Below the pieces are notes generated by a model. The model was not told the origin of the DNA. It searched no databases and worked only from the letters and a program-made list of their open reading frames with translations. From the NCBI GenBank assembly GCA_944393235.1, contig CALXZJ010000001.1, forward strand, positions 14,096 to 78,095: DNA of 64,000 nt. Reading direction: 5' to 3'. This DNA is from an uncultured Alphaproteobacteria bacterium (lineage in GTDB: Bacteria; Pseudomonadota; Alphaproteobacteria; RF32; CAG-239). Position numbers and translations under genes: made by a program. How positions within the stretch are numbered: position 1 is the stretch's first letter; every line of letters begins with the position of its first letter. This document shows positions 10,660 through 49,456 of the stretch, in pieces.

Positions 10660-10667
10660 TCTAATCA

Positions 10668-10690
10668 AACGCCCGCTTGGGCGTTTTTTT
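10668..10690 (+). terminator. rho-independent terminator
   Basis: ACGCCC/GGGCGT hairpin followed by T7. Confidence 0.55.
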
Positions 10691-10840
10691 GTATATAAAA
10701 CTAACCTTATACACCTGTTTCTAGCCAAATGTTTAGATTAAATTTTCAAAATCCGAACTTATTTTTAAGAGCGCAAACACAAATTGCGAACAACTGAAAA
10801 AGCATTAAAATTTTTATTAACAAAATATCAGGAGGAGATT

Positions 10841-10984
10841 ATGGAAAAACAAAAAGGAAATATGCAAGCCTCAACCAAGGAAACCTCAAAAGCTTCTGCC
10901 AAAGGCGGTTGCGGCTGCAAATCTTCAAAACCATCAGACGATGAAGAAATAATAGAAATTGAAGAAGAGGAATGGAAATATTAA
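10841..10984 (+). CDS. small acidic protein (47 aa) with GGCGC motif
   Basis: CAGGAGGAG RBS. A terminator-like hairpin at 11010..11040 follows. Sequence is MEKQKGNMQASTKETSKASAKGGCGCKSSKPSDDEEIIEIEEEEWKY. Confidence 0.4.
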   Translation: MEKQKGNMQASTKETSKASAKGGCGCKSSKPSDDEEIIEIEEEEWKY

Positions 10985-11150
10985 AAATCCAAAACCAATA
11001 ATTTCAAAACCCCGTTCACCATAAAAGATGAGCGGGGTTTCATATTCAATAGCGGCAAAATTGTCGCTTGTTTTCCGTTGCTTAACCAAAATTTAAGCAA
11101 AAACCGCTAAACATAACACAACTGATCATATCTTTTCCTGAGGAGTCGCC

Positions 11151-14100
11151 ATGACCGTTCCATTTTTCAAAAAAGCAATCTGTTTGCTTTTAATGCCGCT
11201 GTTAATCATCAGCACGGCGATTCCGCCGGCAAGCGCTGCTTATAACAAACTTGCGCCCCATGATTTTTATGAAATGTATGCACTTGCCGCCAATGGCAAA
11301 ATTTCCAAATTAAGCAACGCCATCCACCGCGGTTTGGACATTGATGCCGTAAACCAAAACGGCGACACCGGTTTATGCGTTGCAGCCAAACAAAAAAATG
11401 CCAAAGCATACAACACCTTTCGGAACTTAGGCGCCAACCCCGCGCATCCTTGCACCCGGAACATTCCTCACTATCAGTCATTTGTCAATTCGCGTGCCGT
11501 GCAAGCCGGTGCTTTTTGGCAAGAAAGCAGCTATGCACCGCCGGCATACAACATGGAAAACTCCAGCTCCGACAAATGGAAACTCGCCGGCCTTTTATTA
11601 CTATTAGGCGGCGGAGCCGCAATCTTATTAAGCGGCGGCGGTGGTGGCGGCGGTAGCGATGATGAACCTGCTGAAAACCCGGGCTTGAGCTGCGAATACG
11701 GCTGCGCCGAAGAAGACGAAAACGGCAACTGCCTTGTCTGCAATGATGCCCCGGATCCTGCAGATCCCTGTGAAGAAGATCCGTGTGCGGAAGGTTGTTA
11801 TACCAATATTACCTGCGGTCCGGGTGAAACCTGCAGTCAGCAAAATGCTTGCGGCGGTTGTGAAGCATGTACGGCAACGGAAGAGCCTCCGGCCGAAGAA
11901 TGGGAGGAATTTGCCTTACAATTTTACATGTCTTCCAGCCACACAAGCTTTGAAAATGAAGAAGATATATATCATGAAAAGCCTGAAGATGTTTATGCCG
12001 AAATGGGGTATTGGGGGGGAATTAATGCTGGTCAGGGTTTTCTAACAAATACCGGAAACATAACTTTGACATCATCCGATAGTTTTTCCAGTACATGGGG
12101 GTTTGGGATTTTTAAAGGAAACTTCGACGACCGCTCTGATCTTTTAACCGATACAATGTGGAGTGCTGATTATGGTTTGACAAATTCCGGGGATATTACA
12201 ATTGATGCCCCTTCCGCTGCAACTTTGGGCATATTTACCCAAACACTTGGACAAATGGGGGATCGTGTCTTGGAGAAAATAGAATCTTTGGTAAATGAAG
12301 GAAAGATTACAATAACCGGAACCAACTCCAGCGGTATTATGCTTGTCGGCAACGGCAAACTTGACAATTCCGGTGCGATTAACATAAGCGGTCAGATGAA
12401 AAAGTCTAGACAGGGAGCTTTGTATAGTATGTATGGAACATATTCTACTCAAGCCGTTGTTGATGATAATTATATTTATCAATATGTTATGCCCACATTT
12501 CGCAATGCTGGTATATTTTTTGCCAACCATGACAGGGGGTATGGTATTGAATCGGTAATGAACAACAGCGTTACCAATTCCGGTGATATTACCTTAAATC
12601 TGGATAGTGATACCATAGATTTGGATACGCCTTTTGCGTCTGTCGGCGAAGATGAAGAGTTTCAAACCGCTGCCGGTATCAGCGTTGATTATTCGCCTCT
12701 AAATGAATATGACTTGTTAACGGTTTCAAATTCCGGCAATATTGATATTAATTTTACGTCCAGCCTGCTGGAAGAGAGTGAAGCTGATGCTGAGGCTATA
12801 TTTGCCGCACGGAAACGCTATTATATTGTCGGCTTAAATATTTCTTCTACAGAAGAAGGCAAAGATTTACTTAATGTTGAAAATACCGGAACTATATCTT
12901 TATCCGGTAATGGCTCAATGCATGGCATTGCTGCCAAAAATGCCGTTATTGAAAACAAAGGCAATATTTTTATTGATATGAACAGTCAAAAGTATGATGC
13001 CGAAACCCGTAATTTTGTATCTGTCGGTATACTGGCACAAGATTCTGTTATTAATCAATATGCCAATATTGACTATCAAATTTCCGGTGCCGGCGGTTCT
13101 TTTTATTCCGCGGCCATGTACAATAGTACCTTGAATGTCGGTCCTGATGCAAAAATTTCCGGCACCGTTGCTGCATATAACAGTACCGTTAATAATCTCG
13201 GAACAATTGAAGTGTCCGGGCAATCTGCAGATGAGAGTACTTACGGTCTTTGGCTGACCGGTGATTCCGGCGGCTATAATGAAGGGGTTATCCATGTTGA
13301 TGCATCCCAAAACGGTATTGGTGTTTATGCCGAACAAACAGAAACTGACGGTTTCGAAAACAAAGGTAGTATTATAGTTAATTCAACCAATGGCATCGGC
13401 ATGTATGCTAACAGCTATGAAGGCGGTATTCACGACCGTTATGTCAGACTTATCAACAGTGGTACGATTTCGGTTACCGGGGATAACAGTGTCGGTATGT
13501 ATGCCAACGGTGCCAATTCCGTTATTGTTAATACCGGAGAAATTATTGTTTCCGGCAATAACAGTCAGGAAACAGATACTGCGAATCGCGGTACATTTTC
13601 AGACGGCAGTAAAACAGAGGCACAGGCGTTCAGGCTTGTAAACGGTGCAGCGCTTTATAACCTTGGCACGCTGGAATCCGATGGTAATCTGGATTTTGAT
13701 GCTCTGACGGATAATCAAAGTAAAGTTATTGCTGGAAAAAGTTCTGTTATTAAGGCCGAAAGTGTTAACGGAACATTGTATGCAAGTGCAGATATTACCA
13801 CCGGCAGTAATGAGGATTATTATGAAAGCCGTGTGATTGAGGCAGAAGAAAACAATGCTACAGCAGCCTCCAACAGTGCCATGTTTGCTGCAGAAATGGC
13901 TGGCGATAAAATGGTCATGACGCGCTATGATTTTAATGAAATCGTAGCAGATAAAAATTTGGCGGCATATCTTGAGAATAATTATCAACAAGGTAACAGA
14001 GTTGATTTGTATGATACGTTTAAAGCTGCCCAAGATACTGAAGTTTTAAACAGCACAATCAGTTCTATGCTGGGAGCAGATTTTGTGCCGGCATTGGCGT

Positions 14101-19548: not shown

Positions 19549-20085
19549 ATGGAACTTTTAGAAGGACTTTTAACCAGACGTTCGGTGCGTCAATTTGCTG
19601 CGGATAAAAAAGTCAGCAAAAAAGATATTGAAGAAATCTTAAAAGCGGCATCGTACGCGCCATCGGCGCACAACAAACAGCCATGGGAGTTTGTGGTGAT
19701 TGAAGATCCTGAAAAACGGGCGGGCTTCCGAACGGTACAACCTTGGACAAGCTTTGCTAAGAACGCCTCTTGCGTGATTGTTGTGTGCGGCAACACCGAT
19801 GAAACTTTCCATCGTGAAAAAGAAAACGAACACTGGAACTTTGCCGATGTGGATTGCGCTTTGGCGGCGCAAAACATTTTGCTTGCTTGCCATGCCAAAG
19901 GTTTGGGCGCTTGTTTCTGCGGTGCAGCACCGATGCCGTTGGTGATTGACGGTGTTCGCAAATATTTGAATTTGCCGGAAAACATCCGCCCGCTGGCAAT
20001 TATCCCGATTGGTTATCCGGCAGAATCCCCCAAGCAACCGGAAAACCGCTATAATCCAGCCAAAGTCCACTGGGAAAAGTGGTAA
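19549..20085 (+). CDS. nitroreductase family protein
   Basis: LLTRRSVRQF...APSAHNKQPWEF nitroreductase fold motifs. AAGGAG RBS upstream of MELLEG. Confidence 0.8.
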   Translation: MELLEGLLTRRSVRQFAADKKVSKKDIEEILKAASYAPSAHNKQPWEFVVIEDPEKRAGFRTVQPWTSFAKNASCVIVVCGNTDETFHREKENEHWNFADVDCALAAQNILLACHAKGLGACFCGAAPMPLVIDGVRKYLNLPENIRPLAIIPIGYPAESPKQPENRYNPAKVHWEKW

Positions 20086-20136
20086 CATTTTTTTGCAATT
20101 ATAAATTATAAGGGTGGGGATAACTTACAATCTATC

Positions 20137-20500
20137 GTCATGCCACTGCCGAGCAATGCTCGGCAGTTCAGGCATCTCTTCCTTTTTTCTCTGTCATGCC
20201 TCCGAGGTGTTGAAAACACCGAGGATAAGGCATCTCTTCCTTTTTTCTCTGTCATGCCTCCGAGGTGTTGAAAACACCGAGGATAAGGCATCTCTTCTCT
20301 ATATGTGCAACAGACGCCTAACCTCGAGTGCTGCGCACTCTCAAGGCGTGACAGAGAGGAACGAGCCGACGGCCACACACACCCTCGTCACCCCACGAGG
20401 ATACGCCAGCCCCACACCCTCGTCACCCCACGAGGATACGCCAGCCTCTAACCCCGTCACCCCACGAGCCGACAACGTCGGCGAGTTTAGGGGTCTCCCC
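20137..20500. repeat. modular palindromic repeat array A (downstream of pilin-like gene 1)
   Basis: Perfect palindrome CTGCCGAGCA-A-TGCTCGGCAG at 20146..20166. 58-bp tandem repeat at 20171..20286. Hairpin repeats CCTCGTCACCCCACGAGGATACGCCAGCC x2 at 20380..20446. GAGTTTAGGGGTCTCCCC at 20483..20500. All modules recur at 48463..48680. Confidence 0.75.
20171..20286. repeat. 58-bp perfect tandem direct repeat (2 copies plus partial third)
   Basis: GGCATCTCTTCCTTTTTTCTCTGTCATGCCTCCGAGGTGTTGAAAACACCGAGGATAA repeated head-to-tail. Contains a GGTGTT-GAA-AACACC hairpin. Confidence 0.8.
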
Positions 20501-20663
20501 TCCTTATCTAAAAGCAAACTCCCGCAACTTTTGTTACGAGAGTTTTTTTAGGGGAAAATATTATTTTTTTACGGCTAGGGAACCGATAAATAATATTTCC
20601 GTTTTTTTATGCCTCAAAGCCGCGTATAGGGATTGCCGCTCTCAAGCATAAAACACTCTTATA

Positions 20664-21320
20664 TTAGTAATATTTCCAAGCCACAGCGTTGGTAGAACCC
20701 GATCCAGCACATAAACCAACAGCTTTAGTAACGGTCATCGGTGTTCTTTGAGTTGCAGTTGTTGCACCAGGAATACTTACATCATCATTGCCGTCTGCAG
20801 TGGTGGTAAAAATATTCGCTAACTTGCCACTAGGCACGCCCTTACCGCCATTAGTTGTTGCAGTACCGGCAGATATACCAATCAAGCCGGAAGCCTGACC
20901 GGAACCCCAGTCACCGGTTGCAATCGTCACACAAGCTTCAGAAGACAAACCGGCATATTCAATAATGAAAGCTTCATTATCATTTAAGGCGCGGCCACCA
21001 GCTGCAGCAATGGTTACATCACCGCCAAAGGCATTTGTAATGTCGGATGTGCTGGCTGAACCGGCATTATACATATCTTCCGGAACCACACCGAATTTAA
21101 TGGCTTGTGCATTACTTAACCCCTGATAATTACCCTGTGAAGAGAACAACGTACGGATGTTGGCAACCAACATGGAAACTTGGTCTGTTGTTTTGTTGAT
21201 TTTGTATTTGTTCATGGCTTTGGAATAACCGGCAATACCACCAACCGACAGAACGCCGATAATCGCCAAAACGCCCAACATTTCGACCATCGAACGGCCG
21301 TTTTCATTAATATGTTTCAT
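20664..21320 (-). CDS. type IV pilin-like protein (prepilin-type N-terminus), paralog 1
   Basis: MKHINENG|RSMVEMLGVLAIIGVLSVGG has Gly before a hydrophobic helix and Glu at +5, as in class III/type IV prepilins. C-terminal Cys pair. AAGGAAGG RBS. The ORF-track start at 21398 is a 26-aa over-extension. Confidence 0.7.
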   Translation of the reverse strand: MKHINENGRSMVEMLGVLAIIGVLSVGGIAGYSKAMNKYKINKTTDQVSMLVANIRTLFSSQGNYQGLSNAQAIKFGVVPEDMYNAGSASTSDITNAFGGDVTIAAAGGRALNDNEAFIIEYAGLSSEACVTIATGDWGSGQASGLIGISAGTATTNGGKGVPSGKLANIFTTTADGNDDVSIPGATTATQRTPMTVTKAVGLCAGSGSTNAVAWKYY

Positions 21321-47591: not shown

Positions 47592-48347
47592 TTATTCCTG
47601 TTCCAATTGCGCCATCACCTCGTCGGCGATTTCCGCATTGTGATAAACGTGTTGCACGTCGTCATCTTCTTCCAACGCGTCAATAAATTCCAAAAACTTT
47701 TTCGCCGTTTCCAAATCGGTGATTTCGGTTTTAACCATCGGTTTCCAGTCCAAACGCGAAACCGAAGGCGTACCGAATTGTTTTTCCAACGCATCGGTAA
47801 CGGCTGACAAATCATCCGGCAAAGTTTCGATTTCATGAAATTCTTCATCTGAAACCACATCATTAGCACCGGCTTCCAAAGCCGCCTCAAACATTTTATC
47901 AGCTTCTGCTGCCGCCGCCGGATATTGAATATGGCCGATTCGTTCAAAATTAAACGTCACCGAACCACTTTCACCCATCGCACCGCCACGCTTACCGAAA
48001 ATCGTGCGGACATTGCCGGCTGTACGGTTTTTATTATCAGTCAAAGCTTCAACAATAACAGCGGCTTTGTTGGGCGCATAACCTTCATAACGCATGCTGA
48101 CAAAATCAGCGCCGCCGGCAGTTTGCGTAGCTTTGGCAATAGCACGTTCAATATTGTCTTTGGGCATACTTTCCGCACGTGCGGCTTGAATCGCCAGACG
48201 CAAGCGCGGGTTTTTATCAGGCTCCGGCAAGCCGCTTTTGGCAGCCACCGTAATTTCTCGAGCCAATTTGGCAAACACACGGGCTTTTTTGGCGTCTTGT
48301 GCGCCTTTACGATACATAATATTTTTAAACTGCGAATGTCCGGACAT
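47592..48347 (-). CDS. yebC: YebC/PmpR family DNA-binding transcriptional regulator
   Basis: MSGHSQFKNIMYRKGAQDAKK N-terminus. Conserved yebC-ruvC adjacency. Confidence 0.9.
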   Translation of the reverse strand: MSGHSQFKNIMYRKGAQDAKKARVFAKLAREITVAAKSGLPEPDKNPRLRLAIQAARAESMPKDNIERAIAKATQTAGGADFVSMRYEGYAPNKAAVIVEALTDNKNRTAGNVRTIFGKRGGAMGESGSVTFNFERIGHIQYPAAAAEADKMFEAALEAGANDVVSDEEFHEIETLPDDLSAVTDALEKQFGTPSVSRLDWKPMVKTEITDLETAKKFLEFIDALEEDDDVQHVYHNAEIADEVMAQLEQE

Positions 48348-48462: not shown

Positions 48463-48680
48463 ACAACCCAACCTCATCACCCCATGAGGATACGTCAACC
48501 CCTAACATCCTCACCCCACGAGGATACATTAGCATCCGAGTTTAGGGGTCTCCCAAAGGACGCCTTAATCGCCACGTAATAGCGCGTCGGTGGCGTGACA
48601 GCACAAAACGTCATGCCACTGCCGAGCACTGCTCGGCAGTTTAGGCATCTCTTCCCTTGTGCGTGCAACAGCCGCCCTGC
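48463..48680. repeat. modular palindromic repeat array B (downstream of pilin-like gene 2)
   Basis: CCTCATCACCCCATGAGG and CCTCACCCCACGAGG hairpins. GAGTTTAGGGGTCTCCC at 48538..48554. Palindrome CTGCCGAGCA-C-TGCTCGGCAG at 48619..48639. GGCATCTCTTCCC and TGTGCGTGCAACAG. Same modules as array A in a different order. Confidence 0.75.
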
Positions 48681-48742
48681 GTAATAAAAATAGAACCGGC
48701 AAGCCGCCCCTAAAATTAACTTATTTGCCTTTTTTAACAACA

Positions 48743-48772
48743 AAAGACTCCCTTGCAAAAAGGGAGTCTTTT
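48743..48772 (-). terminator. rho-independent terminator 28 nt downstream of pilin-like gene 2
   Basis: 11-bp stem AAAGACTCCCT / AGGGAGTCTTT with a 7-nt loop and flanking T-rich sequence. Confidence 0.6.
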
Positions 48773-48799
48773 GTTTCGGTAAAAACCTAACCAATCGGC

Positions 48800-49456
48800 T
48801 TAGTAGTATTTCCAAGCCACCACATTGGTAGAACCATCACCATTACAAGCAGCAACGGCATTGGTAATTGTCATCGGTGTCGGGTAAGTAGCATCACCCG
48901 GAATAGCTATTGCCGCAGTACCAGTGCTACCGGAAGTATAAATTGTATCCAACGCGGTACCAACACTTGACAATTCACCGGCTTCCGCATTTTCATCAGC
49001 ACCGGCAGTAATAGCAATCAAACCGGAACCTTGACCGGAACCCCAGTCACCGGTGGCAACCGTCACACAAGCTTCAGATGTCAAGCCGGCATATTCGATA
49101 ATGAAAGCTTCATCAGCCTGACCAGCACGAGCCGGAGAAGCTTCAATTGTCACTGCACCGTTAAAAGCATTGTGCATGCTCAAACCACCTGAAGAACCGG
49201 CTTCATACATATCTTCCGGAACCACACCGAATTTAACCGCTGCACTATTGTCCAAACCGTCATAATTGCCCTGTGAAGAGAACAATGTACGGATGTTGGC
49301 AACCAGCATGGAAACTTGGTCTGTTGTTTTGTTGATTTTATATTTGTTCATGGCTTTGGAATAACCGGCAATACCACCAACCGACAGAACGCCGATAATG
49401 GCCAGAACGCCTAACATTTCGACCATCGAACGGCCGTTTTCATTAATATGTTTCAT
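48800..49456 (-). CDS. type IV pilin-like protein (prepilin-type N-terminus), paralog 2
   Basis: First ~65 codons nearly identical at the nucleotide level to 20664..21320. Conserved EAFIIEYAGL...TGDWGSGQ and C-terminal VAWKYY blocks are separated by divergent segments. Confidence 0.7.
   Translation of the reverse strand: MKHINENGRSMVEMLGVLAIIGVLSVGGIAGYSKAMNKYKINKTTDQVSMLVANIRTLFSSQGNYDGLDNSAAVKFGVVPEDMYEAGSSGGLSMHNAFNGAVTIEASPARAGQADEAFIIEYAGLTSEACVTVATGDWGSGQGSGLIAITAGADENAEAGELSSVGTALDTIYTSGSTGTAAIAIPGDATYPTPMTITNAVAACNGDGSTNVVAWKYY

Follow-up and report, generated by a model that had tools for sequence, protein, structure and literature searches.

Background

The elements reported here resemble two described groups of repeats. 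The first are the CGTC-tagged REPs, which carry a terminal CGTC tag (or TGTC or CCTC), have complementary A-T residues at the first two positions of the stem and occur mostly in alpha-Proteobacteria (Di Nocera et al. 2013, PMC3733652). They are often arranged as head-to-head dimers, and a dedicated transposase was not known at the time. The Neisseria dRS3 and Rickettsia RPE-4/-6 repeats belong to this group as well (PMC3733652). The second are the targets of the Ssn system. In Neisseria, the 28-nt NTS CGTCATTCCCGCGMAVGCGGGAATCYRG, which contains dRS3, is bound by SsnA as single-stranded DNA only and in one orientation only (Chenal et al. 2025, PMC11893778). With its 94 aa, SsnA consists of a single GIY-YIG domain (cd10448); it makes its cut a few nucleotides upstream and shows no RNA binding. 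The critical positions of the NTS are the three bases that precede the palindrome and the C that follows it (PMC11893778). Across bacteria, ssnA genes are found with such repeats on both flanks. NTS clusters adjoin membrane or host-interaction genes, the dRS3 repeats composing NIMEs are enriched beside genes that vary between isolates, and the Ssn system reduces the integration of repeat-carrying transforming DNA (PMC11893778).

Here we describe two hairpin arrays in a 64-kb stretch of DNA from an uncultured alphaproteobacterium (referred to as the window). From their sequence and that of related contigs we consider it likely that both arrays consist of one family of REP-like oriented units of the CGTC-REP/Ssn-related class, and form putative Ssn targets at the 3' side of two pilin genes.

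Two pilin genes and their flanking regions

The window contains two paralogous type IVb-like major-pilin genes, both on the minus strand: pilin 1 at 20664-21320 (Pfam PilS_N 2e-16, Bundlin 4e-13) and pilin 2 at 48800-49456 (PilS_N 4e-19, Bundlin 3e-12). Each encodes a protein of 218 aa. Residues 1 to 65 are identical between the two and the whole proteins are 70% identical, the C-terminal halves being variable. A mechanical ORF call starts pilin 1 at TTG 21398 (244 aa) instead of ATG 21320 (218 aa); the ATG is the likely start, because the N-terminal 65 residues that result are those identical to pilin 2. Pilin 2 has approximately 8000 relatives, the sole source-named one being 'type 4 pilus major pilin [Alphaproteobacteria bacterium]'.

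Locus A is the interval between a nitroreductase gene (19549-20085, plus strand) and pilin 1, and locus B the interval between yebC (47592-48347, minus strand) and pilin 2. The intergenic lengths 3' of the pilins (578 bp and 452 bp, respectively) are unusually long for an otherwise compact chromosome. The window has approximately 68 genes, of which two only encode pilins, and its only two clusters of hairpin units adjoin these two. Long gaps are otherwise few; one of them, of 491 bp (10660-11150), lies upstream of the gene for a 1274-aa autotransporter, whose orthologue has BigA_3rd and Autotransporter domains, and is without hairpin units. Open reading frames run through both arrays (20114-20551, plus strand, 145 aa; 48495-48815, minus strand, 106 aa), but these consist of repeat sequence and are almost certainly not genes.

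Each array is separated from its pilin gene by a further hairpin. Between pilin 1 and its array the terminator scan found an intrinsic terminator with a 13-bp stem and a T-run on both strands (20516-20545). Between pilin 2 and its array lies a terminator-like hairpin, AAAAGACTCCCTT / AAGGGAGTCTTTT (48742-48773), which is fully paired in the folds of both strands and was not listed by the simple terminator scan.

Composition of the two arrays

Read along the plus strand, the order of elements at locus A is P1(+) P2(+) P2(+) Q(-) R R T(+). At locus B it is R T(+) Q(-) P1(+), followed by a truncated Q(-). Bit scores given below refer to the covariance model R1, which is described in the next section.

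Locus A starts with unit A1 (P1; 20134-20181, plus strand; 48.0 bits, E 2e-12). It has a CGTC tag, the foot ATGCC/GGCAT, a 10-bp upper stem CTGCCGAGCA/TGCTCGGCAG, the bulge TTC and the tail CT, and folds as single-stranded DNA with -15.9 kcal/mol (z -6.9). Unit A2 (P2, first copy; 20190-20239, plus strand; 53.2 bits) also folds; it has a TGTC tag, the foot ATGCC/GGCAT and an upper stem with CGAG/CGAG tandem G.A. Unit A3 (20248-20297, plus strand; 53.2 bits) is a second, identical copy. The 58-bp tandem duplication at 20170-20297 (2.2 copies, 100% identical, TRF score 256) equals one P2 unit plus a 10-nt linker, with its junctions within the conserved 3' foot/tail AGGCATCTCTTCC. P2 and P1 are different hairpin units that have only the conserved ends GTCATGCC ... 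AGGCATCTCTTCC in common, and locus B is without P2. The initial annotation had described the duplication as expanded and seeded on one of the motifs of locus A. It is indeed confined to that locus, but it is no expansion of the palindrome module: what is duplicated is this second, different unit.

Unit A4 (Q) is inverted (20308-20355, minus strand; 45.1 bits). It was matched by the regex on the minus strand as GTCACGCC...AGGCGTCTGTTG, and on the plus strand it reads TGTGCAACAGACGCC...GGCGTGACAG. Next come two 35-bp half-units R (20378-20455, plus strand; TRF period 35, 2.6 copies; CCTCGTCACCCCACGAGGATACGCCAG). Half-unit R is a tandem repeat of the tag, 5' foot and 5' arm of a T-type unit, and at locus A each one folds into a small alternative hairpin, CCTCGT/ACGAGG. 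The array is completed by unit A5 (T; 20453-20500, plus strand; 45.8 bits) with a CGTC tag, the foot ACCCC/GGGGT, CGAG/CGAG, the stem GCCGAC/GTCGGC and the bulge TTT.

Locus B has one half-unit R (48469-48506, plus strand). It is followed by the degenerate T-type unit B1 (48507-48555, plus strand; 35.8 bits), with the tag and foot CTCACCCC, an A.C mismatch in the upper stem and a weak single-stranded fold (z -1.3). Unit B2 is inverted (48554-48602, minus strand; GTCACGCC...AGGCGTCC; 42.6 bits). Unit B3 is of the P1 type (48607-48654, plus strand; 47.8 bits; fold -15.9 kcal/mol) and differs from A1 in the loop base (C, not A), the bulge (TTT, not TTC) and one change in the tail. The last element is a truncated inverted unit (48659-48677, minus strand), of which the 3' foot and tail only are present (GGCGGCTGTTGCACGCACA on the minus strand), as judged against the full inverted units at locus A and in strain contig L002.

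Its two strands taken together, the window also contains three long-loop G-quadruplex-like runs (four tracts of three or more G, loops up to 15 nt). Two of these coincide with the half-unit repeats on the pilin-sense (minus) strand, at 20391-20429 and 48467-48517. Canonical G-quadruplexes, with loops up to 7 nt, were found nowhere in the window.

The initial annotation had reported the same modules in a different order behind the two genes, and this is correct, including the coordinates. At locus A the palindrome CTGCCGAGCA-A-TGCTCGGCAG with GGCATCTCTTCC (20146-20182) is distal to pilin 1, and the CACCCCACGAGG hairpins with GAGTTTAGGGGTCTCCC (20378-20499) are proximal. At locus B the hairpins with GAGTTTAGGGGTCTCCC (48469-48554) are distal to pilin 2, and the palindrome with GGCATCTCTTCC and TGTGCGTGCAACAG (48619-48672) is proximal. 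Because these modules all read on the plus strand at both loci, the order truly differs, and the claim that the arrays are not collinear holds. The central base of the palindrome also differs in the way described, being A at 20156 and C at 48629. The 17-mers of the motifs occur 2 to 5 times against approximately 0.05 expected, and are absent elsewhere in the window. Finally, the common unit is 94% identical between the loci (A1 against B3, 47/50 nt) whereas the array-to-pilin spacers are unrelated, which bears out the suggestion that the arrays are no passive co-duplication with the gene.

A single oriented hairpin unit

All modules derive from one oriented hairpin unit. This unit is approximately 42 nt long (35-44 nt) and consists of a non-palindromic 5' (C/T)GTC tag, a foot of 5-6 bp, an upper stem and a C-T tail. 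The foot is formed by A-Y-S-C-C(T) pairing with (A)G-G-S-R-T. A 3-nt bulge lies on the 3' side and the loop is 3-4 nt. The sequence of the upper stem varies freely, often including CGAG/CGAG tandem G.A in a Py-GA-Pu context. In these terms, the palindrome with GGCATCTCTTCC is one P1 unit, GAGTTTAGGGGTCTCCC is the 3' half of the T unit with foot ACCCC/GGGGT, and the module TGTGCAACAG ACGCC ... GGCGTGACAG is a hairpin unit on the opposite strand (GTCACGCC ... AGGCGTCTGTTGCACA). The half-unit GTCACCCCACGAGGATACGCCAG was compared with the full units GTCATGCCACGAGGATACGCCAGTATCCGAGTTTAGGCATCT (L002) and GTCACCCCACGAGGATACGTCAGTATCCGAGTTTAGGGGTCT (L017). The arrays thus mix direct and inverted full units with tandem 5' half-units, and junction sequences recur: GGCGTGACAG-CACRAAAC-GTCATGCC is found at locus B and at locus A of L002.

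This changes the interpretation of the differing orders. The initial annotation had read them as a shuffling of modules of a common ancestor. The modules are, however, one oriented unit in direct or inverted form, plus half-units, and differing orders are normal for clusters of interspersed repeats, so the shuffling reading is not supported. The two arrays are different samples of one grammar and not a shuffled common ancestor.

The definition of the unit is supported by 58 distinct units extracted from the window, other strains and related genomes (20+ contigs). The extraction regex fixed part of the tag and of the bases after the palindrome, and left foot positions 2 and 3 free. In 51 of the 58 units the first interior loop leaves exactly three bases unpaired on its 3' side and none on its 5' side. 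Foot pair 1 is A-T throughout (58/58). The foot covaries nearly perfectly at the next two pairs, with TA in 43, CG in 14 and another combination in 1 for pair 2, and GC in 36, CG in 21 and another combination in 1 for pair 3. The tags are TGTC (31), CGTC (15) and AGTC (11).

In alignment A1 (34 sequences) the GTC is invariant and a C follows the foot in 34/34. When its 14-pair structure is applied, 85.7% of the cells pair, against 60.8 +/- 1.5% for shuffled sequences and 29-38% for slid partners. Both sides change in 10 of the 14 pairs, and double-change cells number 123 against 41 +/- 5 in the shuffles. This alignment served to build the covariance model R1, with which the 64 kb were searched, filters being off. 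Exactly 8 full units were recovered, each of them inside one of the two arrays (35.8-53.2 bits, E between 1e-8 and 5e-14); the best match beyond these scores 11.6 bits (E 0.3), and on 8 unrelated control loci there were no matches. Tag, foot and bulge are intact in all 8 window units. Two of the locus B units fold poorly as single-stranded DNA, so part of this array may be decaying. No Rfam family was found anywhere in the window at gathering thresholds, and a scan with TCACCCCACGAGGATAC of a genome-contig collection without this species returned only 19 single chance matches in unrelated phyla.

Neither of two approaches to choosing a strand was informative. By RNA folding energy both strands are approximately equal (-15.2 against -15.0 kcal/mol mean per unit), the sense fold being better for 32 of the 58 units. 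By wobble pairs, the few single-base variants give A.C and not G.T on the unit-sense strand, which gives no sign of selection on that strand. A K-turn reading of the G.A pairs and bulge was discarded, since a distance of two pairs separates the one from the other. Ideas of a CsrA/RsmZ-like or C-rich-loop sRNA were given up in view of the two orientations of the units and the many loci that carry them.

The strong folds might suggest elements that act as RNA, be it by stabilising the 3' ends of transcripts of the convergent genes, by terminating these transcripts, or as a small structured RNA from the plus strand. Folding is far stronger than in shuffled sequences for either strand (z -4.5 to -8.3), a terminator-like hairpin follows each array on the plus strand, and REPs are frequently located downstream of genes and able to stabilise mRNA (PMC3733652). 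We nevertheless regard this explanation as improbable. Intrinsic terminators separate each pilin gene from its array, both orientations occur within one array, and the orientation relative to the pilin varies between species: the units are mostly antisense in the window, and sense in the contigs L044 and L069 of two related species. Moreover, the non-palindromic tag and the bulge track the unit and not the direction of transcription, the arrays have no Rfam match and no convincing plus-strand promoter before them, and SsnA does not bind RNA (PMC11893778). It is the intervening terminators, the two orientations and the species-varying orientation to the pilin that make RNA roles less likely.

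Variation among strains

The initial annotation had proposed to look for copy-number variation in other strains, and the result is clearly positive at both loci. Strains are represented by metagenome contigs of the same species, found by exact-protein look-up. Arrays are present in all strains seen. The intergenic length at locus A ranges from 478 to 729 bp; the 58-bp unit occurs in one copy in L001, L002, L004 and L006-L008 and in two in the window, L003 and L009, the inverted unit occurs one or two times and the 35-bp half-units zero to four times. In full, the arrays at locus A read P1 P2 Q T (L008), P1 P2 Q R T (L004), P1 P2 Q R R T (L006), P1 P2 Q Q R R R T (L007), P1 P2 Q Q R R R R T (L001), P1 P2 Q P3 Q R R R T (L002) and P1 P2 P2 Q P3 Q R R R T (L003 and L009, which are identical and come from different samples). 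At locus B the half-units vary from one to three, and eight contigs from different samples have an array identical to that of the window. In L017 and L018 an extra 65-nt insert (...CACCCCATAAACAAACGCCAACTCCAAACGCCGCCCCTTGAACCGACGATACTCGCAAACCCTC...) interrupts the half-unit at approximately window position 48478; the pilin-2 allele of these two contigs is 93% identical. The contigs L005 and L010 terminate inside the array, as expected for repeats.

Arrays of different strains differ by whole-unit indels, and the junctions of gained or lost units lie in the conserved foot and tail sequences, which fits slippage or unequal exchange. The flanking genes are 96-100% identical among strains, L002 dropping to 88% in one stretch of the downstream aldolase gene, and the central part of the pilin falls to 80-95% identity.

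Two strains show larger changes in pilin 1. L008 (1000-2309) is homologous to the window only as far as a point within the array; in place of pilin 1 it encodes a Cys-rich secreted protein of 356 aa, which has a signal peptide, internal repeats CDGYxLTQCPTNGxCSxCxSGSTTKYKLDSC and no Pfam match. The pilin-1 allele of L007 (1600-2319; 239 aa) has a very different C-terminal half, and an in-frame duplication of seven residues (LAIIGVL-LAIIGVL) in the N-terminal hydrophobic helix, which could be real or an assembly artefact.

Such differences could be taken as signs of a pilin-variation system in which the arrays serve as sites where the two pilin loci exchange sequence by site-specific or RecA-dependent recombination, similar to Neisseria pilE/pilS. 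The paralogous pilins have identical N-termini and variable C-terminal halves, alleles differ between strains up to the replacement in L008, the units provide short homology between the loci, and on the pilin-sense strand the long-loop G-runs occur only in the half-unit repeats. We consider this very improbable. The Neisseria system relies on promoterless silent cassettes and an adjacent G-quadruplex, neither of which was found in the window: its two pilin-like sequences are both full-length, each with its own upstream region, and there are no silent pilin cassettes or extra pilin fragments. Canonical G-quadruplexes are lacking, as mentioned above, and each gene has units on one flank only. 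A recombinase, for which the initial annotation had proposed to search, was not seen near either locus, nor was a transposase (annotated genes surrounding the two loci, and 20 further ORFs of the window). Without silent copies, recombinase or canonical G-quadruplex, a pilE/pilS-like system is not supported.

Repeat units in related species

A pattern derived from P2 matched 19 metagenome contigs. In related low-GC genomes the units occur at many intergenic sites, including non-pilin sites, which speaks against a recombination system specific to the pilins as had been implied at first. The relatives typically have two unit types, GTCATGCC..AGGCATCT and GTCATCCC..AGGGATCT, in opposite orientation, and one contig has five unit sites in 13.8 kb. 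Units also follow a pilin gene directly in L051 and L060. Among five pilin loci of other species, picked regardless of repeats, L044 has a full array, L067/L068 a single weak upstream unit, and at the other three (L042, L065 and L066) units are absent.

In four other species (L044/L047, L058, L064 and L069) units are found on both sides of a gene that encodes a GIY-YIG-only protein of 92-98 aa. In L064 all 7 units of the 17.7 kb lie within 420 bp of this gene. The gene order in L044 and L069 is pilin, terminator, units, GIY-YIG, units. Of the families searched, Pfam PF01541 is the only one confirmed for these proteins, which have no PDB or NCBIfam match. Their residues Y4, Y15 and E62 align with Y6, Y17 and E64 of Neisseria meningitidis SsnA, at an offset of two residues.

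The small GIY-YIG gene is located beside TrbC/VirB-type conjugation genes in L069 (692-13613) and L064 (10001-11444). In L069 it lies between the conjugation genes and a type IVb pilus operon (TcpQ, secretin, PilO, ATPase, platform protein and two pilins), and one more unit (12829-12875) is found just upstream of a further PilS-type pilin. Contigs with close homologues of the gene are mostly under 2 kb, consistent with assembly breaks at flanking repeats. Censuses based on metagenome-assembled genomes may therefore under-sample it.

The window itself contains no GIY-YIG/ssn homologue (tblastn best E 0.19-1.5). In L044 and L069 the ssn-type gene occupies the position where the window has units only, and the unit density is two clusters in 64 kb here against several per 10 kb in the relatives. 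Together with the degenerate, truncated and half-units in the arrays, this makes it plausible, although on balance less likely, that the same repeat family persists as a relic. The units would then be non-functional leftovers of an ssn-associated selfish element that once resided behind a pilin gene, and the copy-number changes neutral replication slippage in a tolerant intergenic region. Such decay is harder to reconcile with A1 and B3, which are still 94% identical and fold perfectly despite their unrelated surrounding spacers, with the intact tags, feet and bulges of the 8 units, and with the persistence of the arrays in every strain seen.

Comparison with known repeat systems

The units resemble the SRM/NTS repeats of the Ssn system in the 5' (H)GTC tag, the A-T/T-A start of the stem and the C directly after the palindrome. 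They fall within the stated range of 20-50 nt and form intergenic clusters beside surface-protein genes. In the related species the likeness extends to the gene for a single-domain GIY-YIG protein of 92-98 aa that they flank. Differences are the longer, bipartite stem (foot, 3-nt bulge and upper stem, often with tandem G.A), the tandem half-units and a window without ssn gene. The published SRM pattern, HGTCWYN(0-2)YYVSBRHN(0-5)WNVSBRGN(0-2)RNCYNB, matches 0 of the 58 units and has no matches in the window or in L044, L046, L049, L058 and L064. It misses the units because their stem is longer and bipartite; an ends-only version of the pattern matches 56 of the 58.

With the CGTC-tagged REPs the units share the CGTC/TGTC tag, the A-T stem start, the alphaproteobacterial host, the frequent pairs in opposite orientation and the location downstream of genes. 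However, the families CGTC-1 to -4 have an uninterrupted stem of 8-9 bp, a loop of 4-5 nt and a CCA tail, whereas the units here have a stem of 6 + approximately 8 bp with a 3-nt bulge, a loop of 3-4 nt and a CT(T/C) tail. Neither stem, loop nor tail agrees with any of these four families.

The arrays as a whole are similar to NIMEs and to the BIMEs of E. coli: mosaic intergenic arrays of two or three short palindromic unit types with alternating orientation, specific linkers and a copy number that varies between strains. Here they are small, with 3-5 full units, and unlike NIMEs the sequence has no dRS3 consensus (ATTCCC-N8-GGGAAT). They also differ from REPs and BIMEs that are associated with RAYT (GTAG tag, Y1 transposase), as the tag is (C/T)GTC; a RAYT or transposase domain was not found among the genes annotated around both loci and the 20 further ORFs.

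Conclusions

The explanation we favor, that of REP-like, Ssn-related units, invokes a known kind of element. What is new is a longer-stemmed member in an uncultured alphaproteobacterium. By analogy with the class, the hairpin would form in single-stranded DNA and on one strand only, and a small single-domain GIY-YIG nuclease (Ssn) would bind it and cut a few nucleotides upstream. Under the Neisseria model, incoming transforming DNA would be trimmed at repeat clusters around surface-protein genes. Each cluster would then act as a cut site and recombination boundary on the 3' side of its variable major-pilin gene: single strands, whether incoming or replicating, would be cut there, and recombination tracts would be cut short where the surface gene ends. 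The short homology shared by the units would at the same time feed slippage, unequal exchange and unit expansion.

For the annotation of such loci, a speculative reading of active shuffling at the pilin loci is replaced by a concrete, testable identity. Censuses based on regular expressions undercount motifs of this kind, whereas a small covariance model finds the units cleanly.

For the biology, the recently described Ssn/hairpin-repeat system would reach an uncultured lineage of Alphaproteobacteria and include a longer form of the hairpin, with a bulge. The recurring arrangement of pilin, repeats and nuclease gene may be used for testing whether repeats of this kind shape how surface-antigen genes are exchanged outside Neisseria. 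A more specific idea, which we put forward tentatively and think rather doubtful, is that long-stemmed Ssn-related hairpins and their GIY-YIG gene are tied to the 3' side of type IVb pilins and bound transformation-mediated allele replacement by nuclease cuts. If true, this would provide a parallel to the Neisseria NTS clusters around surface genes in a separate lineage, that of uncultured gut-type Alphaproteobacteria, and would link the pilus to the control of what incoming DNA can overwrite.
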